Notes under the pieces: generated by a model
Told to the model about the DNA's origin: nothing
Seen by the model: the letters and a program-made list of their open reading frames with translations, nothing else
Databases searched by the model: none
From: a virus
Taxonomy: Duplodnaviria; Caudoviricetes
Strand: one strand, 5' to 3'
Length of the DNA stretch: 64,000 nucleotides
Virus record (IMG/VR): IMGVR_UViG_3300042885_001472
Translations under genes and position numbers: made by a program
Shown: positions 2,163 through 58,798 of the stretch, in pieces
How the letters are laid out: each line of letters opens with the position of its first letter
Numbering within the stretch: position 1 is the stretch's first letter

Positions 2163-2379
2163 TGTAGTATTGGTTATAACGGTTGGATATTGGCTTTCTA
2201 ACCATTTATATAATGCCAAAATGAGCTAATATTTTGTTAGTATTTCGTTTACTTTTACTTTTTTAGGGGTCCATTATAAAATTAAACTATCTGATTTATA
2301 GCACTTTACAAAAATAATGTAAATATATGAGATGTATATAATATATATAATGTATATTTACACTATAAAACTAAACAAT

Positions 2380-2661
2380 ATGAGAAATTTAATATCAGTA
2401 AGCAATCAAACAGTAAGAGTAGGTAACTTTATTATTAGCAATGTTGCAGAATATGTTTTAGATAATGGAAATAACCAAATAGAATTTAAACTTGTTTCTG
2501 CTACTGACAATTTAGATATGGTTGTCTTAAAAAGTTTAGGTATTAAAAAGGTAGAGTTTAATGCAATGAATAATAACCACATTGATAAATTTATTGAAGG
2601 GTCAAAACAAGTTTATTTCACAAATGATTTTTTTAATTCATTAATAAAATTAACAGTATAG
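2380..2661 (+). CDS. hypothetical cassette protein
   Basis: ATG 2380 (MRNLIS) preferred over the track start at 2332. Confidence 0.65.
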   Translation: MRNLISVSNQTVRVGNFIISNVAEYVLDNGNNQIEFKLVSATDNLDMVVLKSLGIKKVEFNAMNNNHIDKFIEGSKQVYFTNDFFNSLIKLTV

Positions 2662-2891
2662 TAAAATGAAAAAACTTACTAAAATACTTCAAAGTTTAAA
2701 TCGCTTTGCAATCGGTTTGATTTGTAACAATGTCTACCGAAACGCTAATAACAAAGATAACTGCTTAATGGACTTTTGCAAAGAAAAATAATAAATGTCT
2801 ACCGTTTTTGCAAAAGCTTATACGTCTGCCAAACTGTTGCCAAAGCGTGTGTTATGTGACGTTTTTTTATTAATAAACTAAAATTAAAATT

Positions 2892-3089
2892 ATGGAAATA
2901 GGAAAATTAAAAGTAGTATTCATTCTGTCTAATGGTCAAACTTTGACAATTAAATGTAAAAAGTTTAGTATGACAAAACTTAGCGGAACAAAAGGTGAAA
3001 GGGAAATTTCGGTTGAAGGAGCTGATAGAATATGGTCTGTTGACTTAGATGAGGTAGTGGGAATAACTGCTAGATGGTGTCTACTTTAA
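2892..3089 (+). CDS. hypothetical cassette protein
   Basis: Sole ORF of unit 2851-3102. Confidence 0.7.
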   Translation: MEIGKLKVVFILSNGQTLTIKCKKFSMTKLSGTKGEREISVEGADRIWSVDLDEVVGITARWCLL

Positions 3090-3256
3090 AATGACACATA
3101 ACGGTTGCAAATATAAAACGTTTATTAAACTAAACTTAAATTGAAAAACAGAATATAAATATAAACACAACAATAAATTTGGAACACTGGAATAAATGTT
3201 TTATATTTGTTGTTATAAGTATGTATTATTTTTTAAACACTAAATTAAATAGAATT

Positions 3257-3463
3257 ATGAAAGACATTAAAGAAATGGAAGTAGAAGAACTTCGCAAAGA
3301 AATGGACGAACTTTGGGGATATTTATATATGACAAGAGAAGTCGGTGCTTATGATAAATTTGAGTGGAACGGATTAGATTATTGGGATGCTGATAGAAGA
3401 CATCACAAAGTATCACAAGAAGTTCTTCTACGGAGTATATTAGAACTCACTGATAAAAAATAA
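3257..3463 (+). CDS. hypothetical cassette protein
   Basis: ATG 3257 (MKDIKE), inside unit 3212-3476. Confidence 0.7.
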   Translation: MKDIKEMEVEELRKEMDELWGYLYMTREVGAYDKFEWNGLDYWDADRRHHKVSQEVLLRSILELTDKK

Positions 3464-3537
3464 TATTACCTATAACGATTTGCGTATATACGCAGTGCTA
3501 ACGAAAATTTAATTTGAAATACAAAATTTAATAATAT

Positions 3538-3729
3538 ATGAAAACTTTAATTGGAAAAATGAAAGCATTGCGTATATACGCTGTTATAAGCAGTGCTTTT
3601 AAACACGATTGTTGGATGAACAAGAAAATGGTATCAGCTTCTTATTTCAAAGATGGTGATAGCAGTGTAATATTTTCAACTGGTAAAAAATATTGTTGTG
3701 AAAAATGTGGGAATCAGTGGTCTGAATAG
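3538..3729 (+). CDS. small Cys-containing cassette protein; starts inside a hairpin loop
   Basis: HDC...CCEKCG. ATG lies in the loop of hairpin 3473-3586. Confidence 0.7.
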   Translation: MKTLIGKMKALRIYAVISSAFKHDCWMNKKMVSASYFKDGDSSVIFSTGKKYCCEKCGNQWSE

Positions 3730-3833
3730 CATTGCTTATAACGTTTTGCAGCTAATAAATCGGCTTGCTGTTTATTAGGTGCGGTTATAGGTATGTGTTT
3801 TTTGCGTAGGAATTAACAACTAAAATTATAAAT

Positions 3834-4001
3834 ATGAAAATTAAAATTAAAACCGAAAAAGTAGAATTTGAATTTGATGATGAGAAAATTTTTCAAATGG
3901 GAAATTATTTTGAAAAGGAAAATAAAGCTGTTTTAGAATTTCTAAAGGAGTGTATTCAAAAGGTAAGTGAGGAATCGATTAAAATTAATAAACGTGAGTA
4001 G
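3834..4001 (+). CDS. hypothetical cassette protein (55 aa, not in the ORF track)
   Basis: MKIKIKTEKVEFEF...KRE*, sole ORF of unit 3784-4029. Confidence 0.65.
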   Translation: MKIKIKTEKVEFEFDDEKIFQMGNYFEKENKAVLEFLKECIQKVSEESIKINKRE

Positions 4002-4086
4002 TGCGGTGGGTAAAAACATTACCTATAACGGTTTGCAGCTTTGAGCCGTTTAAACGAATATTAATTTAAAACAATAATTAACGAAT

Positions 4087-4314
4087 ATGAAAAATGAAAC
4101 AATAAAAAATGGCTTAAAGGTGCTGTTAGTAGCTGTTATTTTTTGCGGTTGTGATACTACTGTAAGGAAAAATTTAACAGGTGAAAAATATTTTGGAAGT
4201 GATATAGAAGTGCTTGTAGTCGATAGTTGTGAGTATCTGATTTTTGCTTCTGGTACGAGAAGTGTAACGCATAAGGGGAACTGTAAATATTGTGCAGAAC
4301 GTAGCAAAAAATAA
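4087..4314 (+). CDS. putative lipoprotein, cassette family A copy 1
   Basis: Lys-rich N-terminus, LLVAVIFCGC lipobox-like motif, HKGNCKYC; paralog of 13897-14160. Confidence 0.7.
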   Translation: MKNETIKNGLKVLLVAVIFCGCDTTVRKNLTGEKYFGSDIEVLVVDSCEYLIFASGTRSVTHKGNCKYCAERSKK

Positions 4315-4430
4315 TTGCTACTAACGGTTGAGGCTATGAGTAGTTGCCTTGTAAATACTGCTCAATTAACCACAAACGCTGATAGGCAATTGCTTATAGC
4401 CTTTGTTATAGGTTGTAAAATTTATGGATT

Positions 4431-4673
4431 ATGAAAGTAACAGATTTTATTGGAGTGAAAGCTAAATACGATGAAGATGGACAATTTATTTGGGGAATTG
4501 AAAAGGATGGTGGACATCAAAAACTTGCTGATTTAAGAGGTTGGGGAGCAATTCAAAACTTATTCATCAATAAGGATAAAACTATTGATTTAGATGCAGC
4601 AGCAAGTTTTCAAGATGAATTTGGCAGATGGATTGTCGAGGCTATAAACGAGAAATTGGAATGGGAACGGTAG
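4431..4673 (+). CDS. hypothetical cassette protein
   Basis: Sole ORF of unit 4405-4693. Confidence 0.75.
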   Translation: MKVTDFIGVKAKYDEDGQFIWGIEKDGGHQKLADLRGWGAIQNLFINKDKTIDLDAAASFQDEFGRWIVEAINEKLEWER

Positions 4674-4814
4674 TAAATTTTATTACCTATAACGGTTGGC
4701 GATTGGTGTCTGTTATTTTGCCTTGCAGACATTTCAATTTTACGATAAACTTAATAGGCAAAATTATAGCACCAATTGCTTGTTAGCAGTATGTGTTTTT
4801 AAACTTTTTTAGCG

Positions 4815-5009
4815 ATGGCAGGATTAAATTATGGAAACTCTTTTACAAAAAAAAGAGGTATGTATAAAAATAAAAAGGTTGGAGTTAGTTACGCTGAGTT
4901 GGCGGATAAATGGATTGTAAGAATATTAAAAAATGGAACAGTAACAACAATTGCACAATTTAAAACAAAGGAGGAAACGGATGAATATTACGGTGCGTTG
5001 GCAGTTTAA
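4815..5009 (+). CDS. possible AP2-like DNA-binding cassette protein
   Basis: GVSY...KWIVRI...F.T.EE pattern resembles an AP2 domain; unit 4782-5025. Confidence 0.45.
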   Translation: MAGLNYGNSFTKKRGMYKNKKVGVSYAELADKWIVRILKNGTVTTIAQFKTKEETDEYYGALAV

Positions 5010-5076
5010 AAACATTACTGCTAACGTTTTGCAGCTAAACTTAGTTTATTAACCGAATTTAAAACACAATGTAATT

Positions 5077-5325
5077 ATGGAATACAAATCAGAAGATTTT
5101 ATATCATTTATAGAGAATAACAGACGAGATAAGGTAAGCCCTAACGGACTTGAATTAATTGCTAAACGTTTTAGGGAACTGGAATGCGAGGTTAATAAAT
5201 TGAGTTTAGCTGCTGTTAGCGGTTCGTTGAGTAGTAAATGTTTTACGTTAGCGAATGAATTGGCAATAGCTGGTTATGGAAACGAAGCCGTTATGTTACA
5301 CTCAATTAGTAATTCAATACAATGA
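5077..5325 (+). CDS. hypothetical protein; N-terminal ~45 codons lie in a hairpin loop and arm
   Basis: Reads through the right arm of hairpin 5022-5218 (KLSLAAVSGSL). Confidence 0.7.
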   Translation: MEYKSEDFISFIENNRRDKVSPNGLELIAKRFRELECEVNKLSLAAVSGSLSSKCFTLANELAIAGYGNEAVMLHSISNSIQ

Positions 5326-5422
5326 CCGCTAACGTTATCGAGCCTTGCACAGCTAAGGTGTCGCCCGGGTTGGGTTATAGGTAGGTTGTAACGAATGTTT
5401 AATTAATACACAATTTAAAAAT

Positions 5423-5683
5423 ATGGAAAATACAGATTTAATAGGAGAAGATTTTTATCAAATAGAAAAACAAAAAGGTAATATTTTAGATGTAAATAGT
5501 GCTATGGCTTTTAAAATAGCTTGGGATTATGCAATTGGTTATCATAAAAATAAGGTTAAAATAATAGAATTAGAGCTATTAAAATACAAAGAATTAGAAA
5601 AAAAAGTTCGTGAAATTTCTGATAATATTAATACTAAGCAAAGTATATCTTATTGCGTTATGGAACATTTTAAAATTATATAA
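5423..5683 (+). CDS. hypothetical cassette protein
   Basis: Unit 5374-5722. Confidence 0.7.
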   Translation: MENTDLIGEDFYQIEKQKGNILDVNSAMAFKIAWDYAIGYHKNKVKIIELELLKYKELEKKVREISDNINTKQSISYCVMEHFKII

Positions 5684-5834
5684 TCAAAAATGTTTCTAAA
5701 TGATACACAACTTACCTATAACGTTTTCGAGCTAAGCCCTCGTTTTAATGGGGCTTAGGTTGTGTTACCTGCTGGCGGCAGAGAAATGTTGCTATAAGAC
5801 TTTAATATAAAAAATAACTTAAAATAAATATAAA

Positions 5835-6305
5835 ATGGAAAGAAGCGATTTTAGAATCATAGAAAGACTGAACTCATTTGGTAAATCTGAATTTATTATC
5901 CAACATAAAAAACATAAAATGGTTGGAGGTTTCTTCGGACTATTTGGTGGTACTATGCAAGATGTATGGGAAGACTTCTACCTAGAAGTATATGAATGCT
6001 ATGTAAACGACCAACACAGATTTCATAAATATCTATTTATACAAAATTGGAAAGAAAATACAGAAGAAGAAATTGAGTTCTATATAGAACACTTCAATAG
6101 AAAACCAATTGAGTATAGAGGATATAAATTAATTCCGATTGTTTCATACTTTGGTCAAAAATGCCTAACCTATTATGACCCTAAATCATTTTGTAGAAGA
6201 GGTAATTACAACTATGGTTATAGAATATATAGTAGTGAATATGAATCCAAGAAGTATATAGATGATAAATTAGATAAAGGCAGAATATTAAATATTTATG
6301 AATAA
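5835..6305 (+). CDS. hypothetical cassette protein
   Basis: Unit 5764-6398. Confidence 0.75.
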   Translation: MERSDFRIIERLNSFGKSEFIIQHKKHKMVGGFFGLFGGTMQDVWEDFYLEVYECYVNDQHRFHKYLFIQNWKENTEEEIEFYIEHFNRKPIEYRGYKLIPIVSYFGQKCLTYYDPKSFCRRGNYNYGYRIYSSEYESKKYIDDKLDKGRILNIYE

Positions 6306-6394
6306 TATGAAGATTCCAATAGGTGAAAATGAAATAGTTTAGATTTTTTTAACGGCACATACAAAACTATTTCAAAGTAGCTACCGCTTGCAGG

Positions 6395-6471
6395 TAACTA
6401 TTATATATAAACAAGTATAGTCTAAACCCTTTAATAACAATACTTTGAACCAAAAAATTATAAAGATTTGT
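6395..6471. repeat. conserved array-terminal site, copy 1 (candidate attI-like site)
   Basis: 73/77 identical to 16134-16210 by manual alignment. Confidence 0.85.
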
Positions 6472-6542
6472 AAATAAAAGTTTAATTATCTTTTAAAGAT
6501 GAAAATCACTAAATAAAATTAGGAAAATATAAATTAATATGT

Positions 6543-6550
6543 TATCTTTG
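6543..6550 (+). promoter_or_regulatory. Bacteroidota-type -7 promoter element TAnnTTTG (representative copy)
   Basis: Also at 11863, 27317, 32772, 36176 and 61369, and on the minus strand upstream of minus-strand genes. Confidence 0.65.
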
Positions 6551-6565
6551 TAAAAAATATATGTT

Positions 6566-7024
6566 ATGGAAAGTTTAGATGTTAAAAATTTTTGTTTAGT
6601 TATATTAGGTAAACAAAATGACGTTAAAAAAGAGTTAGAATTTATTTCTGAAGGACCAATAAATTATGTTGAGGGAAAATATTTATTCATCGCAACTTTT
6701 AAATCAACATTGTTCGCGAAGGATATTGAAATCTTTTTAAGTAGTTCCAATATAAATTATATCTTATCTGAAATGGTTTCTTCATTATTTTCGGCTGATC
6801 TTGGTGAGTTTAATTCAGCACTATTTAATTTAAATCAAAATACTAATATTTTTGAGAAAAAAATTGTTGTAGATTATACTGGAACTGAAGAAGCTGTAAT
6901 TATTGATGAAGAAGATGAAAATTTAACTTTAGATGAATTATTGGATTTAGTGTCTGAAATAGGATTGGATAAATTAACAAGTAAACAAAAAGAACTTTTA
7001 AATAAATTTTCACTAAATAAATAA
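6566..7024 (+). CDS. hypothetical protein
   Basis: 152-aa ORF co-oriented with the sigma factor. Confidence 0.75.
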   Translation: MESLDVKNFCLVILGKQNDVKKELEFISEGPINYVEGKYLFIATFKSTLFAKDIEIFLSSSNINYILSEMVSSLFSADLGEFNSALFNLNQNTNIFEKKIVVDYTGTEEAVIIDEEDENLTLDELLDLVSEIGLDKLTSKQKELLNKFSLNK

Positions 7025-7025
7025 T

Positions 7026-7835
7026 ATGGTAAATAAAAAATTCATTAATGGTCAAGAAGATTCAATTTCAAATTACCTTAAGGATGTAAAAAAGTGTGGT
7101 GTTATTAACACTGACACTGAAGTTGAATTAGCTAAAAGAATACAAGAAGGTGATCAAGTTGCCGCTGATGAATTGGCTAAAGCTAATCTTAGATTTGTTA
7201 TATCAATCGCCAAAGAATATCAAAATCAGGGATTACCATTAGCGGATTTAATTTCAGAAGGTAATTACGGATTGATTATAGCGGCTCAACGATTTGACTA
7301 TACAAAAGGGTTTAAATTTATTTCTTACGCTGTATGGTGGATAAAACAATCTATTATGCAGTCACTAAACGAACATTCCAGAACTGTTCGGTTACCAACT
7401 AATGTTATCAATAAACTTTCTAAAATTAAGAAAGAGATAGATGCGTTTGAGCAAAAGTTTGAAAGAAAACCAGTATTAGGTGATGAAATTGAAATGGTAT
7501 TCCACCCAACAGTGATATCGTTAAGTACAACAATAAATGATGATGGTGATGAGTTAATTGAAGTTATTGAAGATCCTAACATTAATAGTCCGGACAATGA
7601 TCCATATAATGAGTACGACATTAAAGAACGTATGAATAAAATTCTATCAATTCTTTCTGAAAGGGAGAAAAATGTGATTGAGTTATATTATGGTATAAAT
7701 GGATCACCTTTAACATTGGAAGAAATTGGTGAGGAATATGATTTAACTAAAGAAAGAATTCGTCAAATTAAAGAAAAATGTATCAGAAAACTTAGAAATA
7801 ATGCTGATGTCTTACAACAACAATTATTTGGATAA
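7026..7835 (+). CDS. RNA polymerase sigma-70 family factor (RpoD/RpoS-like)
   Basis: Region 2 ANLRFVISIAKEY, DLISEGN, FISYAVWWIKQ; region 4 HTH TLEEIG..LTKERIRQI. Confidence 0.95.
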   Translation: MVNKKFINGQEDSISNYLKDVKKCGVINTDTEVELAKRIQEGDQVAADELAKANLRFVISIAKEYQNQGLPLADLISEGNYGLIIAAQRFDYTKGFKFISYAVWWIKQSIMQSLNEHSRTVRLPTNVINKLSKIKKEIDAFEQKFERKPVLGDEIEMVFHPTVISLSTTINDDGDELIEVIEDPNINSPDNDPYNEYDIKERMNKILSILSEREKNVIELYYGINGSPLTLEEIGEEYDLTKERIRQIKEKCIRKLRNNADVLQQQLFG

Positions 7836-7980
7836 ATATGAATAAATTTAATGAGTGGTGGAACGAAGTTTTATTCGTTATTAATATTAGTATCTTTGAA
7901 ATATCTGTTGATAATGGAATGATTTGTTCATTGATATTGATAATTTTTGGATTAATGAGTTTATAAATAAAACAAATAAT

Positions 7981-8160
7981 ATGAAAAAAGACATTGAAAT
8001 TAGTGTAACTGAAACAAAATCAGTTGAACATGTTAGTTATGAAGAGTTGTATAACTCATTAAGAGATAGAATTAGATTAATTCAACAACTTAATGATAAA
8101 TACGAAAATGATGAAGATTTTGGTAGAAATTTAAGAAAATTATTGAATTTAGGTGGGTAA
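7981..8160 (+). CDS. hypothetical protein
   Basis: ATG 7981 (MKKDIE) preferred over the track start. Confidence 0.6.
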   Translation: MKKDIEISVTETKSVEHVSYEELYNSLRDRIRLIQQLNDKYENDEDFGRNLRKLLNLGG

Positions 8161-8247
8161 AAATATTGATACTAACGGTATCGGACTTGGCGATGTTGCC
8201 GAAAACAAATGTTAATTAGAATTACTAAACTTTAAATTATAGATAAA

Positions 8248-8544
8248 ATGTCAAACGAAGAAATGAACGGCAATATTGTCAAACCCGTGTTACCTGTTGT
8301 ACTTATTTGCGATTGCAGTAGCCGTGAACACCAAATTATCATTGAACACAACAATGAAGATAACTTAACCTACTGCCATATTCATTTGGTAAAACACGGC
8401 TTTTGGCGAAGATTGAAAGTTGGTTTAAAATACATATTTGGTTATAAATGTAGATACGGTCAATGGGATGAATTTATATTAAAACCCGAACACGCTAACC
8501 AGCTTCGTGAATTGTCGAATTTTCTTTCACAGCATAGCAGGTAA
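8248..8544 (+). CDS. hypothetical cassette protein; starts in a hairpin loop, stop overlaps TAAC
   Basis: CDC...H...H motif; TAA 8542-8544 is part of the TAAC core. Confidence 0.75.
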   Translation: MSNEEMNGNIVKPVLPVVLICDCSSREHQIIIEHNNEDNLTYCHIHLVKHGFWRRLKVGLKYIFGYKCRYGQWDEFILKPEHANQLRELSNFLSQHSR

Positions 8545-8665
8545 CGGTTGAGTAGTAAAAAATTCTAAAACTAAAAATTATGTATACAAAAGATTTATAT
8601 GGATTTAATCCAGTTACAATTGGCCAACACAGGTTGGTTATATTTATTTATTTATAACTAATAAC

Positions 8666-8965
8666 ATGAAAACTAAACAAGAAATAGAAAAGTTAGCTGA
8701 GCAATATTTACAAAAAAATAAACATAATTTTGATACTTGGAAAGAGATAGAACATGTTAAAATTAGTTATATAGATGCTTACACTCAATGCCAAGAAGAT
8801 GTAGATTGGGAATTATTAGTGAAGTTGATTAAAAGGTATACAGAAGAAGATTTACTTCACGCTTTTAGAGAAGGAGTTTTATTACCTAACTCACAAATTG
8901 GTATAATGGAAGATATATTTAAACAAGTAGTTCAATCACTAAACAAACAAGACAATGAAAACTAA
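8666..8965 (+). CDS. MKTKEEIEQLAE-family paralog 1
   Basis: Shared modules MKTK.EIE.LAE, YTQCQED and SLNKQD. Confidence 0.75.
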   Translation: MKTKQEIEKLAEQYLQKNKHNFDTWKEIEHVKISYIDAYTQCQEDVDWELLVKLIKRYTEEDLLHAFREGVLLPNSQIGIMEDIFKQVVQSLNKQDNEN

Positions 8966-9221
8966 AGAAGAAATAGAACAGTTAGCTGAAGAATTTGGGG
9001 ATAAATATGCTGATAACGGAAATCATAAATATGGTTTTATCAAAGGCTACACTCAATGCCAAGAAGATATGGCTGATAAGAAATCCACAGAGGAAGATAT
9101 TAGAAAGGCTATTGAAGTTGGTGTAAATGCAGAAGCCGGTGATTATCCAAAAGGTTTTACACACAAACTTGGAATTAGCTTAGAAGATTATTTTATTAAC
9201 TCACTAAACAAAAAAGACTAA
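8955..9221 (+). CDS. MKTKEEIEQLAE-family paralog 2
   Basis: Same shared modules. Confidence 0.75.
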   Translation: MKTKEEIEQLAEEFGDKYADNGNHKYGFIKGYTQCQEDMADKKSTEEDIRKAIEVGVNAEAGDYPKGFTHKLGISLEDYFINSLNKKD

Positions 9222-9222
9222 T

Positions 9223-9510
9223 ATGAAAAGCAAAGAAGAAATAGAACAGTTAGCTGAAAATCAATATCCAATTGAAGTAGGAGGTTCGATGTGGATGCCT
9301 AATACTAATGATATTAAAAAGGCTAATGAACAAGAAGGTTACATAAAAGGTTACATTCAATGCCAACAAGATATGGCTGATAAGAAATATACAAAGGCAC
9401 AAATTATATGGGTAATACAAGAAGCATACGGACACGGTAGAGATAGTGAAGACACTATTGAAGAAAGTATTGATTATATTTTTAACTCACTAAACAAACA
9501 AGACTTATGA
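9223..9510 (+). CDS. MKTKEEIEQLAE-family paralog 3
   Basis: Same shared modules. Confidence 0.75.
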   Translation: MKSKEEIEQLAENQYPIEVGGSMWMPNTNDIKKANEQEGYIKGYIQCQQDMADKKYTKAQIIWVIQEAYGHGRDSEDTIEESIDYIFNSLNKQDL

Positions 9511-9612
9511 TACAAAAGATTTATCTAAATGTAATTAGTTTTATATTTTTATTAATTGCAAAATTGATTATTAAATGTTTAGATTTTATCAACTCATTAA
9601 ACAAACAAAACA

Positions 9613-10497
9613 ATGACCAGTAAAGAAGTAATGGATGCAGCATTTAATTTAGCTAATAATAAACAAAAGACAATGAAAAACATACACATATTGCCAACGG
9701 ATAAACCAAGTATATTACATTTATATACTGATGAAAATGGCACAAGACTTGAAACTTTTGAAGTAGAATATTCACACACAAGAGATACTCAACACATCTA
9801 CATCACTTCTGATGAAGAAATTAAAGATGGAGATTGGTATTTAGACACCTTTAATAATCAAAGAATTAAAGCTAATGAATTTTCAGACCATAAACATTAC
9901 GGAAATGCTTGTAAAAAAATCATCCTAACAACAGACCAAGACTTAATTACAGATGGTGTTCAAGCTATTGATGATAAGTTTTTAGAATGGTTTGTAAATA
10001 ACAGTAGTTGTGAAAGTGTTGAGGTTGTAAAAGACGGTTTAAAAGTTAAAGAGGGAGGTATTCAAGAACTAATGGAAGATGAGTATTATCAAAAATTCCC
10101 AGAAGAGCTTCCAAACTGCGTTTTTATTGATAAATATGAAATCATCATTCCACAAGAAGAACCTAAACAAGAAACACTTGAAGAAGTTCAATTAGCTATT
10201 TTATTTCATAATACTTATGAGAATTTAGCACCAAATTTTGGTTATGAAACAAGAGCAGATACAAAATCATTTGAAACTACTACTCCAAATGGAATGTTAA
10301 TGATTGCTGTTTGTAAAGAAATAATTAAATGGCAACAAGAAAGAAGTTATAGTGAGGAAGAAGTAAAAGAAATAATTAAACTTTCTTGTGAAAAAGGTAT
10401 GCTGATTCAAAGAACTATAAATGATAAAGTTAAAATTCCATATACAAGAATAAAAGACTTTACGATTAAAATGTTGGAACAATTTAAAAAGAAATAG
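9613..10497 (+). CDS. hypothetical mosaic phage protein
   Basis: 294-aa ORF. Confidence 0.75.
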   Translation: MTSKEVMDAAFNLANNKQKTMKNIHILPTDKPSILHLYTDENGTRLETFEVEYSHTRDTQHIYITSDEEIKDGDWYLDTFNNQRIKANEFSDHKHYGNACKKIILTTDQDLITDGVQAIDDKFLEWFVNNSSCESVEVVKDGLKVKEGGIQELMEDEYYQKFPEELPNCVFIDKYEIIIPQEEPKQETLEEVQLAILFHNTYENLAPNFGYETRADTKSFETTTPNGMLMIAVCKEIIKWQQERSYSEEEVKEIIKLSCEKGMLIQRTINDKVKIPYTRIKDFTIKMLEQFKKK

Positions 10498-10498
10498 T

Positions 10499-10825
10499 AT
10501 GAAAACTAAAGAAGAAATAGAACAGTTAGCTGAAAGCCAATATGGAACTGAAATAGGCAGTATAAGAGGGAGTAATCCTTATGACTTAGAAGGAAATAGA
10601 AAAAATGGCTTAAAGGTGCTGTTAGTGGATGATAAAATTAAGTATGATGATTTAAAAGACGGAGATATTTATGAGCAGGAACAAAGCAAAGGCGAATGGG
10701 TAAAAGGAAAAATTTGCCACCATTGGAGAGGTAGTTTAATGATAGAATTAATTGAAGGAAGATTGAATGGGAAGCAATGGTATTTGTTTCCTGATTTAAA
10801 GAGATTAAGGCGTGTGGCAGCTTAA
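10499..10825 (+). CDS. chimeric protein: MKTKEEIEQLAE head, hairpin-arm peptide, cassette body
   Basis: KNGLKVLLV is encoded by an orphan right arm at 10601-10624, identical to the arm in 4087-4314. Confidence 0.7.
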   Translation: MKTKEEIEQLAESQYGTEIGSIRGSNPYDLEGNRKNGLKVLLVDDKIKYDDLKDGDIYEQEQSKGEWVKGKICHHWRGSLMIELIEGRLNGKQWYLFPDLKRLRRVAA

Positions 10826-11088
10826 TTTTATTTGCCACTAACGGTTGAGTGTATGAGAAGGTTTGCTTTGTTAAACTTTCAAATTACCACCGACCTTTGT
10901 AGCTAACTTTCTTATACACCTTGTTATAACCAGTACGGATAAATTAGCACTGAACTTGATACGAAGAACGAATAAAAACTTTTTAAAAATGTGCGGTGGA
11001 AAACTTGATTAATTTAAAAATAAGTAGTATATCTGTAATATCATAATAATAATAAACTAATAAACTAATAAACTAAAAAATTAAACAA

Positions 11089-11682
11089 ATGGCAAAATTT
11101 ATTGAAACAATTTATCCAACTATTGAAGATAGAGTAAGTAGATGGGAAACAATGGGAATGTTACATATAGTTAAATCTGATGATTCTAAAAAATTGGTGG
11201 CGATGGCACTTGATGCAACTGCAATATATCTTACAGAATTTAATTTTAAAAATTTTGATAACGATACAAAAACGGTTTTAATACCAGTAATTGTAAGAAT
11301 TTTCAACGAAACAAACAAAGATTTCACATTAGAAACATTAACTAAATCAGTTAGAAGAATAATTGAAGATTTTGTGGAAAAATATGAAGAAGCAAAACCT
11401 AAGTTTAACCCATTAACTTCCGAAAGAGATGATGATGCTGAATTTATTGCGTTATATTGCGAAAACTATTCTTTTGATGAAAACAAAATTAAAATTAAAT
11501 TTAAAATTACATTTTGGAAAGATATTCCAGAAAGAACATTTATAATTGATGATACCAACTTCTTTCCAAAATATTTTATGGGGTTGGATGGTATTTTATA
11601 TGAAAATTATGGAACAGAGGAAAAACCAATGTGGGAAAATGTTTTTGATAGTGACTATGAGATTGAAATTGTTAATCTTTAA
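11089..11682 (+). CDS. hypothetical cassette protein
   Basis: Unit 10923-11753. Confidence 0.75.
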   Translation: MAKFIETIYPTIEDRVSRWETMGMLHIVKSDDSKKLVAMALDATAIYLTEFNFKNFDNDTKTVLIPVIVRIFNETNKDFTLETLTKSVRRIIEDFVEKYEEAKPKFNPLTSERDDDAEFIALYCENYSFDENKIKIKFKITFWKDIPERTFIIDDTNFFPKYFMGLDGILYENYGTEEKPMWENVFDSDYEIEIVNL

Positions 11683-11884
11683 GGTGGGAAATTTTTAAAA
11701 AGTTTTTCTCACAGAACTTAAATATGGAACACGAATGTAGTATTGGTTATAACGGTTGGGTGTATGAGAAGGTTTGCTTAGATGAACTTTCAAATTATAC
11801 ACAACTGTTATAACCAGTACGGTTAATTTAAGATAAAACTTGATTAAATGAATAATAATTAGTATATTTGTAAAAAAATAAATT

Positions 11885-12358
11885 ATGGAAAACATATTAA
11901 AAAGGCTTGAATATAAAATATTTAAGAAATACGAAAAAAAGATTGAAGATGTAAAAGATTATGTATGGGATTATAAAAAAATCAATAATGACATTACTCA
12001 ACTTGAACACAATGAAACATTGAGTCGTTTTGTGTTATATTATATGAAAGAATTTAACTTAGATGTAATAATTACATCTGGAGAAATTTGCACTATATTT
12101 CAAAACTTTAGTAATTTTTATATTATTGGTGAAAACGATGTATATAATTATAAAAGATATAAATCTGACATTAGTAATGATTTTGAACCATTTTACCTTA
12201 TCAAAGAAGAAGATAATAATATTGGGGTTGTAATTAAAACCAATATTAGAATTGAACCGAATAATATTATACTAACAAACACTGAAGGTTCTAATTATAA
12301 AATAATTGATGTTTGGAATTTACCAAGTGTTAAACTAACTGAATGTTTTAAAAAATAA
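11885..12358 (+). CDS. hypothetical cassette protein
   Basis: First gene of two-gene unit 11807-12719. Confidence 0.7.
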   Translation: MENILKRLEYKIFKKYEKKIEDVKDYVWDYKKINNDITQLEHNETLSRFVLYYMKEFNLDVIITSGEICTIFQNFSNFYIIGENDVYNYKRYKSDISNDFEPFYLIKEEDNNIGVVIKTNIRIEPNNIILTNTEGSNYKIIDVWNLPSVKLTECFKK

Positions 12359-12362
12359 AGAT

Positions 12363-12701
12363 ATGGAAAAAGAAAATTTAAAAACTGGGGTGTACCTCAT
12401 AAAAGCGGATAGTAAAGATTATTCCTTAACAAAAGAGAAAGAAGAGAAAATAAATTCATTAGAAATTAATGAAGAACATAAAGATTTTTTCAAAAATCTT
12501 TTTAGAGAAGAACCAACACCAAAAGGTTATGATTTATTAGTTGAATTGGTTGGTCAAAATCCTTTTTTAAAAATCAAAAGTGTTAAAAATAATGATACTG
12601 GTGAAAATATTACTGAACAATTTACTGATAAAAATATTGATGATGTTAATTCTTTATGGTTATTTACTAAACATTTAGAATGGGTTCTTCAGAACATATA
12701 A
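12363..12701 (+). CDS. hypothetical cassette protein
   Basis: Second gene of unit 11807-12719. Confidence 0.7.
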   Translation: MEKENLKTGVYLIKADSKDYSLTKEKEEKINSLEINEEHKDFFKNLFREEPTPKGYDLLVELVGQNPFLKIKSVKNNDTGENITEQFTDKNIDDVNSLWLFTKHLEWVLQNI

Positions 12702-12846
12702 CGTAGTATTGGTTATAACGTTTTGCAGCTTTAAGAAGTGGCTGCCTAACGGAAAGTTCAAAGTTCGCACAATGTTTATGGCAGCTTTTGCCAAACCGCT
12801 GTTATGTGCTGGGCGGATTATCAGTACTAATTTTAATTTAAAAACG

Positions 12847-13059
12847 ATGTACAAAGCATTTCAAAACAAAAAGTATTATTTGGCGTTTAACCGATTTCCT
12901 AAAACTGCCAAAAAAGTAGGGGGTGTGCATAAAGCATATTCAACAGGATTTAGAAAATGGAATTCTGATGATATGATTACCTACGCAATAGTTGTCGGCA
13001 CATTCAGGATTATGTTTGGAATTAAAACGCCAAATTATACTTGTGATGAAGGATGTTAG
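12847..13059 (+). CDS. hypothetical cassette protein
   Basis: ATG 12847 (MYKAFQ) in unit 12801-13072; the track start at 12709 is probably an over-extension. Confidence 0.6.
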   Translation: MYKAFQNKKYYLAFNRFPKTAKKVGGVHKAYSTGFRKWNSDDMITYAIVVGTFRIMFGIKTPNYTCDEGC

Positions 13060-13129
13060 CCTTGCACATAACGCTTTGCAGCTTTGAGCCGTTTACCAAA
13101 TATTAATAACAAAAAAATAAATAACGAAT

Positions 13130-13309
13130 ATGCCAAAAACAATACATGCAAAAAGAGAAGATTTAATTTGCGGAAAAATAGACTTAGCACAAGATATGGC
13201 TATTAAATTAAAAAGTATCGAATTACTTGAATTATTAGATAGTATCAGATATGATGCTGTAAGAATGGAACAAAAACTTATTAGCAGAAAACAGGAATCA
13301 AAAATATAA
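13130..13309 (+). CDS. hypothetical protein (59 aa, not in the ORF track)
   Basis: MPKTIHAKRE...ESKI*. Same ACGAATATG start context as 4087 and 14703. Confidence 0.6.
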   Translation: MPKTIHAKREDLICGKIDLAQDMAIKLKSIELLELLDSIRYDAVRMEQKLISRKQESKI

Positions 13310-13490
13310 ATAACAGAACCACCGCTTGCAGGTAACGGTTTGCAGATTGCCGAAGGTGGCGAAATCGAAGCACTAAACTTGATATAAAAACGAATGTTAA
13401 ACCGAAGCACAACAGTTGATATTAGCACTAAACCGCCACTTTTGGCAATGTGCTGTTATAAGCCGTTTTTCTTCACAAATCAAAAAATAA

Positions 13491-13830
13491 ATGGATTTAC
13501 GAATTGAATACATTTTCAGAGAAGAAATGAAAAGAGATACATCTTTTCAAGAAAAAAAAAACTGGGTTAAGTTTGCTTTTCGGAACAAACAAATACTCTA
13601 AACAAGAAATGAGAGAAACTTGGGATAGAGGTATTAAACTTGGAATAGAAATAGGATTGCGAAAAGCAAGTTTAGAAGGACAAAGGATTGAACTTAATCA
13701 CAATACACCCGAAGGAAAGCATAAGGAATTTCTTGAAAAGTTTTATCAATTGGCTGATGAATATAAATGTGCTGTCCAATTTCATCTCGAATTTGGAATG
13801 GTAGTAGTTGCTCGTCAAAATGGCTTATAA
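13491..13830 (+). pseudogene. cassette gene frameshifted at an A10 tract
   Basis: MDLRIEY... joins ORF 13573-13830 if the A10 tract (13552-13561) were A9. Confidence 0.55.
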
Positions 13831-13896
13831 CGGTTTGCAGATAAGCGAAGGCAAAGATTTAGAAACGAAAATTTTAACTTAAAAACAAATATAATT

Positions 13897-14160
13897 ATGA
13901 AAACGAGAACATCATTAAACCACAGAACCTTTGCTTTTGCTTATGTGCTGTTAGTAGCTGTTATTTTTTGCGGCTGTGAGGATATGAATAGAGCCGAAGA
14001 ACGCTCAAAAGTATTTAAAACAGCAGTAGAAGTTAATGGCTACCAAATATCAATAATAGAATTTGATAGTTGTCAATACTTAATATCAGGCGTTGGCTAC
14101 TCACAAATGATGACACATAAAGGGAACTGTAAATTTTGTACAGAACGTAGCAAAAAATAA
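13897..14160 (+). CDS. putative lipoprotein, cassette family A copy 2
   Basis: LLVAVIFCGC, HKGNCKFCTERSKK; ATG in the loop of hairpin 13828-13953. Confidence 0.7.
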   Translation: MKTRTSLNHRTFAFAYVLLVAVIFCGCEDMNRAEERSKVFKTAVEVNGYQISIIEFDSCQYLISGVGYSQMMTHKGNCKFCTERSKK

Positions 14161-14290
14161 TTGCTACTAACGTTTTGCAGCTAATAGACGGGCTGGAAAC
14201 TTATATAATTCCGCCTGTTTATTAGGTGCTGTTATAGGTAGTGCCAAATATAAATACTAAAAGAATATTAATAATTAAAAAATAGAAATA

Positions 14291-14632
14291 ATGAACTTAA
14301 AAGAATTTGTAAAATTTACATTTGAAAAATACGAAAAAAACGGGTATTGTTTTAGACCTAGAATAGTTTGTAATGATGGGTTTTCAATGAGTGTACAAGG
14401 TAGTAACGCATTATATTGTAGACCGAGAATTACACAAGATTGGTATGATAAAATGGAAATAGGTTATCCATCAGCAGAAGAAATTGATATAATAGAATTT
14501 GCTGAGGATATTACAAAACCAACTGATACCGTTTATGGTTATGTGCCATGTGAACTTATTGAAAAAGTTATTTTAAAACACGGTGGTATTAACTCGGTTG
14601 AAACATTTAAAGCTTCTAAGGATATTAAATAG
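14291..14632 (+). CDS. hypothetical cassette protein
   Basis: Unit 14231-14646; CNDGFSMSVQ...GYPS...VYGYVP. Confidence 0.8.
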   Translation: MNLKEFVKFTFEKYEKNGYCFRPRIVCNDGFSMSVQGSNALYCRPRITQDWYDKMEIGYPSAEEIDIIEFAEDITKPTDTVYGYVPCELIEKVILKHGGINSVETFKASKDIK

Positions 14633-14794
14633 GCATTACCTATAACGGTTTGCAGCTTTGAGCCGTTTAAACGAATATTAATTTAAAACTAAAACAACGA
14701 ATATGAATAACAATGAAATAGAAAATGGCGCAAAGGTGATGTTGGTACCAGTAGCCAAATTAAAATTTAAAAACAATAACTTAAAAATACAATT

Positions 14795-15055
14795 ATGAAA
14801 AACAACAAAGAAAAATCGTACCAATACGCATCGATGATACAAGAGGCAATAGCTGAATTGATTTCAGAACACGAATTATTAGCTGATTTTGATGATGAAA
14901 ATAACGCAACTGCATTTTTACACGCATTAGCTAATGTAGTGCCATGTAATATTTATAAGAAATTAACTAATGATAATACTGATATTTTAGGTTTTAATCA
15001 TATTGCTAATAGATTAGTATATCAATTTACAAAGCAGGACGAAGCCGAAGCGTAA
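14795..15055 (+). CDS. hypothetical cassette protein
   Basis: Unit 14741-15079. Confidence 0.7.
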   Translation: MKNNKEKSYQYASMIQEAIAELISEHELLADFDDENNATAFLHALANVVPCNIYKKLTNDNTDILGFNHIANRLVYQFTKQDEAEA

Positions 15056-15199
15056 ACGCCAAGGGCTATTGGTACTAACGGTCGGCAATATGAAACGGTT
15101 GCCCTTGTAAGACGTTTCAAAATATGATGCAGTTTTCTGGCAACTGTTTTATATTGCTTGTTATAGCCAGTTAATTTTAATCAATAAAAACGAAAAAAG

Positions 15200-15400
15200 A
15201 TGGAAGCACCTAAATTAAATGAAGTATGGCATGTTCAATATGGAGAAGCCATTGGTAAAGAATACAATATCCTTGTAAGAATAGATGAGGATAAAAAAGA
15301 GTTAAATCCACCGAATTGGAGAAGAAACAAGTATAAATGTGAGCATAAAAGTAAGGAACTGATGGTAGGTGGAAATATGTTCATTGAACGGTTTTCTTAA
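15200..15400 (+). CDS. hypothetical cassette protein
   Basis: Unit 15160-15411. Confidence 0.7.
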   Translation: MEAPKLNEVWHVQYGEAIGKEYNILVRIDEDKKELNPPNWRRNKYKCEHKSKELMVGGNMFIERFS

Positions 15401-15588
15401 TTGGCTATAACGGTTGGGTGTATGAGAAGGTTTGCTTAGATGAACTTTCAAATTATGCACAAATGCTGATAGCAAACTTTCTTATACACCTTGTTATGTG
15501 TAGGTGTGGTTAATTAAGGTAGAATGTTCAATTGGATAACTGAACAAAAATTTTAAAAGAAAAAGAAAGGTGGATTTTTATTATTTTA

Positions 15589-15596
15589 ATATTTAT
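15589..15596 (+). promoter_or_regulatory. putative phage late-promoter motif ATATTTAT (representative copy)
   Basis: Recurs shortly before start codons at 20085, 21256, 38448, 46525, 50002 and 62244. Confidence 0.55.
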
Positions 15597-15611
15597 ATAT
15601 AAAAGAAAACA

Positions 15612-16061
15612 ATGAAAGATTTGAAACAATTTATTAAAACAACCATACGAGAGTTTTTGAATGAGAGTTCAATTGGGAATATTGAATATAAAATAACATA
15701 TTCACCACCAGAAAATATTCATGTTGTAGCAAAGATTGATGGTGTTATAATTGGAACATTATCTATAATAGATGATAGTCATTTCTTATCAACAGAAGAT
15801 GAACCAACATTTACAATTATGTCAGTATTTGTAGATAAAGAATATAGACAAAAAGGTATTTATATAAATTTAATCAAATATTTTTTACTAAATAATAAAT
15901 ATGGTGTCAAATCGTTATATTCTTCAAAAGAACCAGAATTTGATACAGAAAAAAGAACATCGGTTGCTGATGGTTTTTGGAAAAATGTTTATACAAATCA
16001 AAATAAATATGGTGTAAATGTTGATAAAATAGATAATGATTATGAAATTTCTTTAAAATAA
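15612..16061 (+). CDS. GNAT-family acetyltransferase-like protein with virion-targeting-like N-terminus
   Basis: Acetyl-CoA-binding-like VFVDKEYRQKGI; N-terminus MKDLKQFIKTTIREFLNE. Confidence 0.65.
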   Translation: MKDLKQFIKTTIREFLNESSIGNIEYKITYSPPENIHVVAKIDGVIIGTLSIIDDSHFLSTEDEPTFTIMSVFVDKEYRQKGIYINLIKYFLLNNKYGVKSLYSSKEPEFDTEKRTSVADGFWKNVYTNQNKYGVNVDKIDNDYEISLK

Positions 16062-36198: not shown

Positions 36199-36613
36199 GG
36201 GTCCGACATGGTTTTGACAGCTAAGTTGATGATTAGGTGTAAGCACGTAGTGAGATGTCAACTATCACTTAAATCTATGTTGGTAAAAAATAAATGCAAC
36301 AATCGTTAAAAACGAAGTCGGTACTTTAGCCGATGTCCTAATGGCTGAGAAATACAACCTATTAGGTGCTATCAAAGGAACAGAAGCTGAACTAGCCCTT
36401 TCTTAGTTATATCCGGAGAAGTATAGTAACCGGATCGCGTAAAACAGTAAACACTTATTGATACTGGGTGGATAAAATTAGGTCAACTATTTTGGTATTG
36501 TGATAGTAAATTCAAAACACCTTATTTGTCAGTTTATAAAAATTGAATAAACGTGTAGAAGACCAGTTATTAAGTAGTATGGACGAGGGGTTCGATTCCC
36601 TCCGGATCCACTA
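36199..36613 (+). ncRNA. ssrA: tmRNA
   Basis: 5' GGGTCCG pairs with 3' CGGATCC-A, including G3-U70. T arm GAGGGG-TTCGATT-CCCTC; TTTTGAC D-loop analogue; internal tag ORF 36296-36406. Confidence 0.9.
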
Positions 36614-56843: not shown

Positions 56844-56868
56844 GTTATTTGATTTTTTAAATGATAAG

Positions 56869-56943
56869 TGATCCCGACAGGATTCCAACCTGTAACCCTT
56901 GTCTTAGAAGGACAATGCTCTGATGCGGTTGAGCTACGGGACC
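56869..56943 (-). tRNA. tRNA-Arg(TCT) with non-canonical elbow
   Basis: GGTCCCG/CGGGATC acceptor, GCTC/GAGC D stem, TTGTC-CTTCTAA-GACAA anticodon arm, T loop TTGGAAT. Confidence 0.85.
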
Positions 56944-57360
56944 AATATTTATGTATGTTGAGTACAAATGTAATGATTATTTTTAATAAAACAAATTTAT
57001 TTTTTAAAAAACAAGTAGTAGAAACTTAGAACCCCACCTTTTGGGGGTTACAGAGAACAGATATTTCTACCCCTAAGTTAATTTTATGTCTTGAAAACTA
57101 CTACTTGTTATTAAATCTACTTACAACTACCTCTACCATATTTCTATGAGTCACTGTCCTGATTGTAAGTTGTAGTCTTTAGAACTACTAGATTTAATGT
57201 GTTTACCTGTCACTCCAAGTGTGTGAATAATCTGTTATTACCATAATAGGGCCAGTCATTATCTATCCACAAACAACTCCCTCTTGGTGTGGGATATACA
57301 TCTTATATCTATCACTAGACAAATTCCACTGTATTTGTTTGCTTTTAGCGGGTAAATATT

Positions 57361-57503
57361 TGTGAGTACAAGTTATCTCCTCTTACTATGGGATACAAAT
57401 TATAGTGCTTGCGAGACCTTGTATCCTCTTACTCGGTAGTATAGTCAATCAGAGACCCCAGCTAGGATGTTTAGAGTCCAGCGGTGGCTTTACCTTGTAC
57501 TCA
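57361..57503 (-). ncRNA. unknown structured RNA, copy 1
   Basis: Three blocks identical to 58318-58483; closing stem TGAGTACAAG/CTTGTACTCA. Confidence 0.7.
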
Positions 57504-57506
57504 ATG

Positions 57507-57575
57507 TAGTCATAGCAGGACTTGAACCTGCATCATCCTAACCCAAGTTAGGGTTCTACATTGAGCTATATGACT
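57507..57575 (-). tRNA. tRNA-like element with 6-nt anticodon loop (Pro/Gln-like pseudo-tRNA)
   Basis: AGTCATA/TATGACT acceptor, GCAGG-TTCAAGT-CCTGC T arm, CCTAA-CTTGGG-TTAGG. Confidence 0.65.
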
Positions 57576-57605
57576 GTTTGCCTGTCTTTCCAGGCTGTCT
57601 GACTA

Positions 57606-57854
57606 CTATGCTATACCGTCATTCCATTTACCTTTATATAGTACTCCATCTACTCTGTCGTTAGCGCTATCATATGCAAACATGATATCAAAGTCCTTGC
57701 GATACCCAAGTGATATTAACTCTACGTAATCGTAGGCTTTTGCATCTATATATGCAGTACACCAGTGACCACAGGACATGAGGCTATGTGTAAACTTTAT
57801 CTTTTTAATCTTATGTTTTTTTGTGGATGTTTCCAATACTATTGTCTTTGTCAT
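57606..57854 (-). CDS. hypothetical protein
   Basis: ATG 57854 (MTKTIVLE); the GL-repeat extension in the track is a by-product of the repeat. Confidence 0.6.
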   Translation of the reverse strand: MTKTIVLETSTKKHKIKKIKFTHSLMSCGHWCTAYIDAKAYDYVELISLGYRKDFDIMFAYDSANDRVDGVLYKGKWNDGIA

Positions 57855-57882
57855 ATGTCCTTTGTTTTTAGTTGTTAATAAT

Positions 57883-58206
57883 TTATACAGACCAAGACCT
57901 AAACCCAGACCCAGACCAAGACTCAGACCAAGACCTAGACCAAGACCCAGACTCAGACCAAGACATAGACTCAGACCAAGACATAGATCCAGACCAAGAC
58001 CTAGACCTAGACCCAGACCTAGACCAAGACACAGAACAAGACCAAGACCAAGACCTAGACTCAGACCAAGACCTAGACCCAGACCAAGACCAAGACCTAG
58101 ACCCATACCCAGACCTAGACCAAGACTCAGACCAAGACCTAGACCAAGACCCAGACCTAGACCAAGACTCAGACCTAGATCTTTTTTGTTTTTTTCCTCT
58201 TATCAT
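57883..58206 (-). CDS. Ser-X dipeptide repeat protein (SR/SW/SG/SE)
   Basis: ATG after an A-rich leader; reads a 6-bp repeat. Confidence 0.55.
   Translation of the reverse strand: MIRGKKQKRSRSESWSRSGSWSRSWSESWSRSGYGSRSWSWSGSRSWSESRSWSWSCSVSWSRSGSRSRSWSGSMSWSESMSWSESGSWSRSWSESWSGSGFRSWSV
57888..58180. repeat. degenerate hexamer tandem repeat (AGACCN)n
   Basis: About 49 units. Confidence 0.95.
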
Positions 58207-58317
58207 TTCTATTTATTTTAAATTGTTAATGTGTTGAGGATGAGAAGTCCTTTGTGTTGTCTATTACTGCTGCGTCCCTAGGGAACCATTCCTTTCTCAA
58301 GGGAACAACACAATTTT

Positions 58318-58483
58318 GTGAGTACAAGTTATCTCCTCTTACTATTTAACAGTAGGTGGCTTCCTACATCTATTAACTCAGTTTTATTTCTTTGTGTTAA
58401 TAGTCAATCAGAGACCCCAGCTAGAGTTTATATAATTAAATAATCACCTAATTACACTCAGCGGTGGCTTTACCTTGTACTCA
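58318..58483 (-). ncRNA. unknown structured RNA, copy 2
   Basis: Same three conserved blocks as copy 1, with different inserts. Confidence 0.7.
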
Positions 58484-58567
58484 GTATTTTTAATTTCAAA
58501 GAACTAATTTTTTATAACATTAATTGTTTAACAAAAGTAAGTATTTTTTTTAAATATAACAAGTGTT

Positions 58568-58798
58568 TTATTTATAAATTTCAACAAACTTTGAATTAAC
58601 TGAATCATACTCTTCTTGTGTCATAGATATCCAAGCACTATAATCAAAAGTTGATGATTTAAAGGTATCAACTATCTGTCTCCCTTCAGTTTCATCTAAT
58701 AACACTAAGTTATCTTTCCACCTATAACTTTGTTGTAGAAACAATCTTTTGTTAGTTTTATGTTTCCAAACTTTTAAACCATGTTCATTTAGTTCCAT
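58568..58798 (-). CDS. hypothetical protein
   Basis: 76-aa ORF. Confidence 0.65.
   Translation of the reverse strand: MELNEHGLKVWKHKTNKRLFLQQSYRWKDNLVLLDETEGRQIVDTFKSSTFDYSAWISMTQEEYDSVNSKFVEIYK

Follow-up and report, generated by a model that had tools for sequence, protein, structure and literature searches.

The stretch analysed here (the window) is 64,000 nucleotides (nt) of DNA from a virus of the Caudoviricetes (Duplodnaviria), IMG/VR record IMGVR_UViG_3300042885_001472. The part between 2.2 and 15.5 kb is read, with a probability of about 0.6, as two integron-like cassette arrays in a phage hyperplastic region, forming a gene-capture platform of reversed polarity. About 22 co-oriented attC-like hairpins lie between 2177 and 15496. 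The reading is carried by the anatomy of these sites, their strand bias, the complementarity between the two ends of each cassette, the breakpoints between contigs, the co-segregation of hairpin cores with the gene downstream, and the linkage of a recombinase gene to such arrays in relatives. The comparisons span about 190 related contigs.

Anatomy and strand bias of the hairpin sites

A stem-scoring hairpin scanner, run on both strands with a shuffled-sequence control, finds 17 strong sites in 2177-15496. All of them are on the + strand; the - strand has none and the shuffles give 0-2. An RNAfold-based scan with looser criteria, open to AAC...GTT hairpins of every kind, returned 141 mostly spurious hits, and the stem-scoring scanner took its place. 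About five weak or half sites were recognised by eye, including sites S9 (5330) and S14b (12716), a truncated member of hairpin family H3 (11750) and half of a member of family H2 (13069). Bare TAAC boxes with no hairpin occur at 6395 and 8542.

Each site opens with TAAC and a spacer of 4-5 nt; an imperfect stem enclosing a loop follows, and about 1 nt separates the returning strand of the stem from GTT(A/G). The spacers are therefore asymmetric: the 5' one is mostly 4-5 nt (GGTTG or GTTTT) and the 3' one mostly 1 nt. The site families of the window are related far beyond chance, with the cores of S5 and S19 giving an alignment score of 67.5 versus a null maximum of 26.

The strand asymmetry of the sites comes from G.T pairs. 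When G.T and A.C are counted with symmetric scoring of both pair types, the ratio is 854:133 in stems other than H3, 226:1 in H3 stems and 514:116 in stems that span a gene; base composition by itself predicts about 1.3:1. By these counts, selection has favoured folding of the sense strand, whether as DNA or as RNA.

Complementary ends of each cassette

What follows GTTA at one site is reverse-complementary to what precedes TAAC at the next site, and not to what precedes the TAAC of that site itself. Contiguous complementary runs across genes average about 7 of 10 in the window, a value matched by none of 20000 permutations, and box pairs from the same site are no different from random pairs. 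The 483 consecutive site pairs from the window and the fetched loci give a run of 6.2 of 10, compared with 1.31 for same-site pairs and 1.16 for random pairs. Therefore, each gene is bracketed by its own inverted box extensions. Such an arrangement is the hallmark of a unit able to close into a circle with one long hairpin.

The unit of exchange

Breakpoints were defined as the ends of high-identity blocks common to different contigs. Of the right-hand block ends, 12 coincide with TAAC and 1 with GTTA; of the left-hand ends, 9 coincide with TAAC and 4 lie just before GTTA. The total is 21 at TAAC versus 5 at GTTA, a GTTA share of about 20%. Co-segregation was scored for core pairs that are at least 88% identical and lie in differing contexts, using 66-nt flanks and a cut-off of 85%. 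An initial annotation of the window had raised the question of whether the sites co-segregate with upstream or downstream genes. The cores go with the downstream gene: flank homology is downstream-only in 80 related core pairs and upstream-only in 1, with null rates in random pairs of 0.15% downstream and 0.075% upstream.

Intact units can also be seen directly. Between contigs L005 and L140, a 315-nt block shows 100% identity and has unrelated DNA on either side. The block consists of ATAAC, a hairpin core, GTTAGGCGTA and a small open reading frame (ORF), and runs up to TTACGCCTAAC. Contigs L012 and L026 likewise share one TAAC-to-TAAC cassette unit of 372 nt. The breakpoints, the co-segregation and the identical units agree; therefore, the usual unit runs from TAAC to TAAC, with the hairpin before the gene. 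This polarity is opposite to that of a classical integron cassette. In another pair of contigs (L021 and L047) a cargo module with both of its extensions is shared at 97% over 601 nt and lies between quite different cores.

A linked recombinase in relatives

A search of five related records with PF00589 returns one gene, in contig G001, just past its array. The recombinase has 265 amino acids (aa) and scores best against the XerA, XerC and XerD models. Against the integron integrase model TIGR02249 it reaches 159 bits in two stretches, where the cut-off is 265, and it is below all cut-offs. The catalytic residues R, HxxR and Y are present. The best matches in the PDB are to XerA (4a8e, 5hxy), and VchIntIA (2a3v) is matched only in two pieces. 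Homologues were found by tblastn in 25 distinct loci, all of which had been fetched for their hairpin motifs alone; one, at 1471-2268 of contig L154, also encodes a 265-aa protein. In 24 of the 25 loci the gene has a co-oriented array immediately upstream, with a gap of 228-1164 nt and no sites beyond the gene. H3 is the last site of the array in 12 of these 24.

The repeated H1, H2 and H3 frames

Family H1 (GCAGCTAATA...TATTAGGTGC) occurs at 3739-3787 and 14168-14234, and H2 (GCAGCTTTGAGCCGTTT) at 4026-4128, 13069 and 14643-14744. An 18-mer of H3 is found at 10849, 11760 and 15418, within sites at 10839-10926, 11750-11810 and 15408-15496. The recurrence of the three families had been reported in the initial annotation and holds, with the caveats that H3 at 11750 has no 3' arm and that H2 at 13069 is a 5' half-site. 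The reported order H1-GTTATAGGTA...CATTACCTATAAC-H2 is also present in both arrays, with GTTATAGGTA at 3784-3793 and 14231-14240 and CATTACCTATAAC at 4017-4029 and 14634-14646. The gttataggta/tacctataac pair within this order follows from the fact that each cassette has inverted box extensions of its own on either side.

The genes enclosed by the two frames (3834-4001, 55 aa; 14291-14632, 113 aa) were described as unrelated, and they are unrelated in sequence, profile and predicted fold. BLASTP gives no alignment between them and hhalign a probability of 0.09%. The AlphaFold model of the 113-aa cargo is a confident alpha/beta fold with a predicted local distance difference test score (pLDDT) of 95, and that of the 55-aa cargo is a beta-hairpin with one long helix (pLDDT 78). 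The structure predictions, in which distant homology of the two cargos could have surfaced, thus give no shared fold. A Foldseek search of the 113-aa model against the PDB has no match at E <= 0.001. The 113-aa family has at least 678 proteins and no Pfam domain, and several members are in site-free contexts. A copy of the 55-aa cargo with 95% identity is found at 2212-2400 of contig L182, which has no hairpin array. This copy retains only a tail resembling a TAAC box, AAAAACATTATTACTAAC, and could be either a decayed cassette or a pre-cassette state.

Two explanations had been offered for the repeated frame, namely gene replacement inside a conserved frame and preferential pairing of the sites. 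Exchange of cargo between hairpins is real in these phages; however, the frame is not one conserved unit. Preferential pairing of H1 with H2 is not borne out. A successor could be mapped for 18 H1 sites, and H2 comes next only at the two in the window (0 of the 16 others). The probability of H1-to-H2 occurring twice is 0.013 for that pair, and it is 0.18 for any repeated heterotypic adjacency among the site families of the window when these are shuffled. The recurrence is most likely a coincidence.

The TAGGT box is enriched at H1 (6/28 vs 8/666). The six cases represent three independent, unrelated cargos, which are the 55-aa, 113-aa and 86-aa genes. Therefore, one site type, comprising the core and both extensions, is common to unrelated genes. 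Contigs L171 and L183 share with the window, at 95% identity, the long form of H1, the GTTATAGGTAGTGCC leader and the 113-aa gene, and the homology ends at TAAC+10. The core after the gene is of another family than H2 in these contigs, and the upstream cassette also differs. Since the unit runs from TAAC to TAAC and cores co-segregate downstream, H1 belongs to the cassette of the enclosed cargo and H2 to the next cassette. The loop of H2 contains an ATG and about 13 codons that are read into whichever cargo follows in 4 of 5 copies. Because the loop supplies this start codon, H2 forms the front of the next cassette.

In L001, in L002 and at 4087, unrelated proteins begin with an in-frame H2 leader (MNNKEIENG...). 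Two lipoprotein-like paralogues in the window, at 4087-4314 and 13897-14160, have 49% identity and both contain the lipobox LLVAVIFCGC. Their starts and N-terminal regions are supplied by different core loops (H2 and S17). They have the GTTAGTAGC / GCTACTAAC extensions in common, and both flanking cores differ.

Among related contigs, the H3 18-mer is found in 111 IMG/VR stretches and 26 contigs of metagenome-assembled genomes (MAGs), the H1 18-mer in 28 IMG/VR stretches and H2 in two other contigs only. H1, H2 and H3 are read as widespread families of cores. Most related loci have arrays of 5-19 co-oriented sites with a spacing of 300-500 nt. The MAG contigs with the H3 18-mer (L114-L139) are labelled Planctomycetota, Methanolobus, Prevotella, Woesearchaeota, Clostridia and others. 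They are most likely mis-binned phage DNA.

Proposed mechanism

Each unit consists of a hairpin core, whose loop sometimes holds a ribosome-binding site and an ATG, followed by GTTA with an extension of 6-13 nt, the cargo, and the complement of that extension, which ends in TAA. In relatives, a short tyrosine recombinase of Xer type is encoded where the arrays end downstream; it would act in trans and cut the TAAC box of the folded, single-stranded sense strand. Cassettes would leave and enter as circles, in which the two extensions would then close a long stem beneath the hairpin core. About 20% of exchanges would take place at GTTA, by which cores and cargo modules could reassort too. H1 with GTTATAGGTA...TACCTATAA would be the cassette's own split site, common to unrelated cargos, and H2 would be the leader-bearing core of the next cassette.

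Several observations weigh against the integron-like reading. No recombinase gene is found by tblastn in the 64-kb window, and there is no PF00589 match in the near-complete array-bearing relatives G003 (96%) and G005 (90%). The linked recombinase is without the IntI-specific insertion. The fetched loci contain no clean insertion, deletion or replacement of a single cassette between collinear genomes, because these loci are too distantly related. Neither flank is in common in 3825 of the 3911 related-core pairs. The start codon in the core is another concern, as selection for it could add to the downstream co-segregation. Finally, G.T-rich stems on the sense strand right after stop codons suit a role at the RNA level equally well.

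Alternative explanations

Intercistronic elements that act on RNA are found in other phages; RNase III sites of T7 and the terminator/promoter motifs of T4-type phages known as promoter early stem-loops (PeSLs) are the relevant comparison. The hairpins could likewise serve processing, stability or translation control of a long early transcript, with the shuffling as a by-product of homologous recombination. The sites are all on the sense strand a few bases past stop codons, their excess of G.T over A.C suits RNA folding, and ribosome-binding regions and start codons are enclosed in the loops. The array also lies in a hyperplastic region of small ORFs beside a gp46-like gene, as PeSLs do (PMC2839356, PMC4122927). 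However, neither class of motif is enriched: there are 80 sigma-70 promoter-like sites versus 90.1 expected, other promoter types being outside the scan, and 5 terminator-like sites versus 3.6 expected, none at hairpins. Recombination within shared cores predicts equal upstream-only and downstream-only linkage, whereas 1:80 is observed. The invariant AAC/GTT boxes, the inverted extensions of 6-13 nt and the recombinase in 24/25 loci are also left unexplained. An RNA-level role may operate alongside recombination; as the explanation of the arrays it is unlikely, although it keeps an appreciable chance.

In an integron, or a cluster of attC sites lacking an integron integrase (CALIN), of classical polarity, each hairpin would be the attC of the preceding gene and crossover would be at G|TT. 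H2 would then be shared and H1 would belong to the gene upstream. The geometry on the + strand is that of the textbook, an ORF and then an AAC...GTT hairpin, CALINs have been reported in virulent phages (PMC9892861), and about 20% of breakpoints are at GTTA. This arrangement is nevertheless improbable. Right-hand homology ends at TAAC in 12/13 cases, the cores co-segregate with downstream and not upstream flanks, identical cassettes are bounded TAAC to TAAC, and the 113-aa cargo in L183 retains H1 and not H2. The start codons in loops would also fall in a different cassette from the gene that they serve, and the recombinase is downstream and co-oriented rather than upstream and divergent. About equally improbable is that the cores are small independent mobile elements, such as miniature inverted-repeat transposable elements, repetitive extragenic palindromes or elements of the insertion sequence IS200 type, which insert at TAAC/GTTA among ordinary genes. 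This would fit the many related cores that have neither flank in common, the same cargo module between different cores on both sides and the homologues of both cargos outside arrays. Insertion would not yield complementary extensions across each gene, nor units of core and gene that are 100% identical from TAAC to TAAC. The sites are also strictly co-oriented and clustered, and the linked enzyme is a tyrosine recombinase, with no HUH/TnpA-type gene seen. Segmental duplication of a two-site block in this genome, with the enclosed gene replaced afterwards, could account for the same ordered pair with identical 10-13 nt extensions in both arrays (P = 0.013), but it is very improbable. The two H1 copies are of different subtypes (short and long loop), each more similar to copies in other phages (98% and about 90%) than to the other, and the two H2 copies resemble L001 (91%) about as much as they resemble one another. 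Recent duplication is therefore unlikely, since the copies are not mutual closest relatives. Beyond the boxes there is no residual similarity, and the look-elsewhere probability is 0.18.

Comparison with known systems

Integrons are regarded as bacterial, and recently also archaeal, devices that depend on a special IntI domain. To our knowledge, what has been recorded in phages to date is limited to small CALINs or captured bacterial integrons. Large phage arrays followed by a gene for a Xer-like recombinase were not found described in the literature searched. The CALINs of virulent phages have 2-3 predicted sites (PMC9892861).

The arrays resemble integrons, such as the repeat arrays (VCR) of Vibrio, and CALINs in having small co-oriented cassettes between imperfect AAC...GTT hairpins. 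They also share the complementarity of the box halves that begin and end a cassette, the single preferred folding strand, the one site family common to unrelated cargos, and a linked recombinase of the Xer/IntI clade, here in relatives. They differ in that the hairpin moves with the following gene and crossover is mainly at TAAC on the sense strand; in integrons the attC comes after its own ORF and crossover is at G|TT. The integron integrase is upstream, divergent and beside attI, whereas the 265-aa Xer-like enzyme is downstream and co-oriented. The spacer is asymmetric (4-5 nt vs about 1 nt), unlike the symmetric unpaired spacer and extrahelical bases of attC. The box extensions pair over 6-13 nt, and the loops can encode starts and N-termini. 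The host is a giant phage of lytic type, and the arrays of the window are without a recombinase within 64 kb.

PeSLs are composites of early promoter and terminator in T4-type phages that are exchanged by homologous recombination (PMC2839356, PMC4122927). Like the hairpins described here, they are repeated stem-loops on either side of small ORFs in the hyperplastic regions of large phages, and they mark where insertions, deletions and replacements between related phages end. They differ from the present arrays with regard to the polar linkage of 80:1, the gene-spanning AAC/GTT complementarity and the dedicated tyrosine recombinase.

Sites of dif type are 28-bp duplexes with two 11-bp arms in alternating orientation, as in the pdif modules of Acinetobacter plasmids and archaeal XerA/dif. 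Both systems combine a recombinase of Xer type with separate gene modules that have short recombination sites at their borders. The sites here are instead folded hairpins of 49-200 nt in a single orientation; no dif-like duplex site was specifically searched for.

A fuller claim is that many uncultured phages, giant ones among them, have a gene-capture platform of their own, with an insertion-less Xer-like enzyme, reversed polarity, major crossover at TAAC and minor crossover at GTTA, and reassorting cores and cargos. This claim is held more tentatively, at slightly less than an even chance. If it is true, the three unrelated cargos within the H1/TAGGT frame would let the entry of new cargo into an existing site be seen directly, and this entry is the unsolved step of cassette genesis in integron biology. 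The sharing of a site type by unrelated cargos and the presence of cargo homologues outside arrays would be natural material on the birth of cassettes. Capture of hairpin cassettes would have evolved more than once, or would exist here in a simpler ancestral form, and the turnover of the many small ORFan genes of giant phages would be explained.

Sites and cargo modules along the window

All sites and modules of the two arrays are on the + strand. Array 1 begins with S1 (2177-2239; TAAC...GTTAGTA), which has a scanner score of 22. S2 (3099-3215), also from the scanner, has a long loop, as does S3 (3473-3586), in which the loop contains the ATG (3538) of ORF 3538-3729. S4 (3739-3787) is the short-loop form of H1 and has 98% identity to copies in other phage contigs. 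Cargo module 1 (3784-4029) is made up of GTTATAGGTA, the 55-aa ORF and CATTACCTATAAC, and together with S4 it is one TAAC-to-TAAC cassette (3739-4029). In S5 (4026-4128), a copy of H2, the loop ATG at 4087 and about 13 codons continue through GTTA into ORF 4087-4314. S6 (4322-4408) has a distant likeness to H3, and S7 (4690-4785) was found by the scanner. The very long loop of S8 (5022-5218) contains the start of ORF 5077-5325. S9 (5330-5377) is a weak short hairpin followed by GTTATAGGTAGG and the 86-aa cargo, which is behind S9 in the window but behind H1 in other phages. S10 (5719-5767) is a short hairpin from the scanner. The array ends at 6385-6398 with a TAAC box (GCAGGTAAC) that matches GTTACCTGC of S10 and has no hairpin after it.

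The terminal TAAC of array 1 is followed by TATTATATATAAACAAG (6395-6420) in place of a hairpin. A similar sequence, TACTATATATCAACAAG, comes after the last TAAC of L026 (oriented, about 2753-2790). From this likeness, TAAC with TATTATATATAAACAAG or TACTATATATCAACAAG may represent a conserved site at the end of arrays.

The first full site of array 2 is S11 (8173-8292), with an ATG at 8248 in its loop. S13 (10839-10926) is an H3 site found by the scanner. S14 (11750-11810) is the truncated H3, of which only the 5' arm and part of the loop are present. S14b (12716-12806) is a weak site that was absent from the list of the initial annotation. The H2 5' half-site S15h (13069-13129) has neither a 3' arm nor a GTTA box, and the ATG after it, at 13130, opens a 59-aa ORF. 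S16 (13333-13458) belongs to the same family as S17 (13828-13953), in which the loop holds the ATG (13897) of the lipoprotein-like paralogue 13897-14160. S18 (14168-14234), identified by the scanner and by site comparison, is the long-loop form of H1. Cargo module 2 (14231-14646) consists of GTTATAGGTAGTG, the 113-aa ORF and CATTACCTATAAC, and with S18 it forms the cassette that is found again in L171 and L183. S19 (14643-14744) is the H2 copy in which the loop ATG (14704) opens a 31-aa ORF. The stop of this ORF overlaps (ATGA) the start of ORF 14795-15055, which suggests translational coupling. S20 (15076-15163) was found by the scanner, and S21 (15408-15496), an H3 site, is the final site of array 2. 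The window is 99.6% identical to G001 from the TAAC of S21 onward, and the sequence upstream is unrelated.

Past the last H3, 15497-15664 comprises about 115 nt of non-coding sequence and the start of ORF 15612-16061. This stretch is kept at 85-93% in dozens of otherwise unrelated contigs and may be a promoter or leader tied to H3.

Half-sites of the 5' kind, as at 13069 in the window, also occur in L008, L015/L043, L053, L055 and L103. They keep TAAC and the 5' arm and lose the 3' arm and GTTA, and the gene starts directly after. Half-sites of the 3' kind are found at L028 and L105. The half-sites may be fixed (immobilised) cassettes or boundaries of arrays.

Gene content of the phage

The window has a G+C content of 28%. 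An SbcC/gp46-like protein (phrog_77) is encoded at 3-1703, beside array 1. Relatives of this flanking gene are merely 39-47% identical and have almost no sites downstream of them. The two arrays are divided by a hairpin-free block (6566-8160) that contains the gene for a full-length sigma-70-type factor (7026-7835). A gene for a GIY-YIG endonuclease is also present in the window. The closest protein matches in cultured phages have at most 29% identity and come from giant or large phages. Cultured phages give no match to the window by megablast or to H3 by blastn. The window is read as part of an uncultured, low-GC giant phage of lytic type.

An Rfam search at gathering score has no match on the hairpin sites; its only matches in the window are a transfer-messenger RNA (tmRNA) and tRNAs. 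The tmRNA (tag AEKYNLLGAIKGTEAELALS) and several tRNA-like genes lie within 36199-36611 and 56868-59177. ARAGORN reports odd anticodon loops in two of the tRNA-like genes of the phage.

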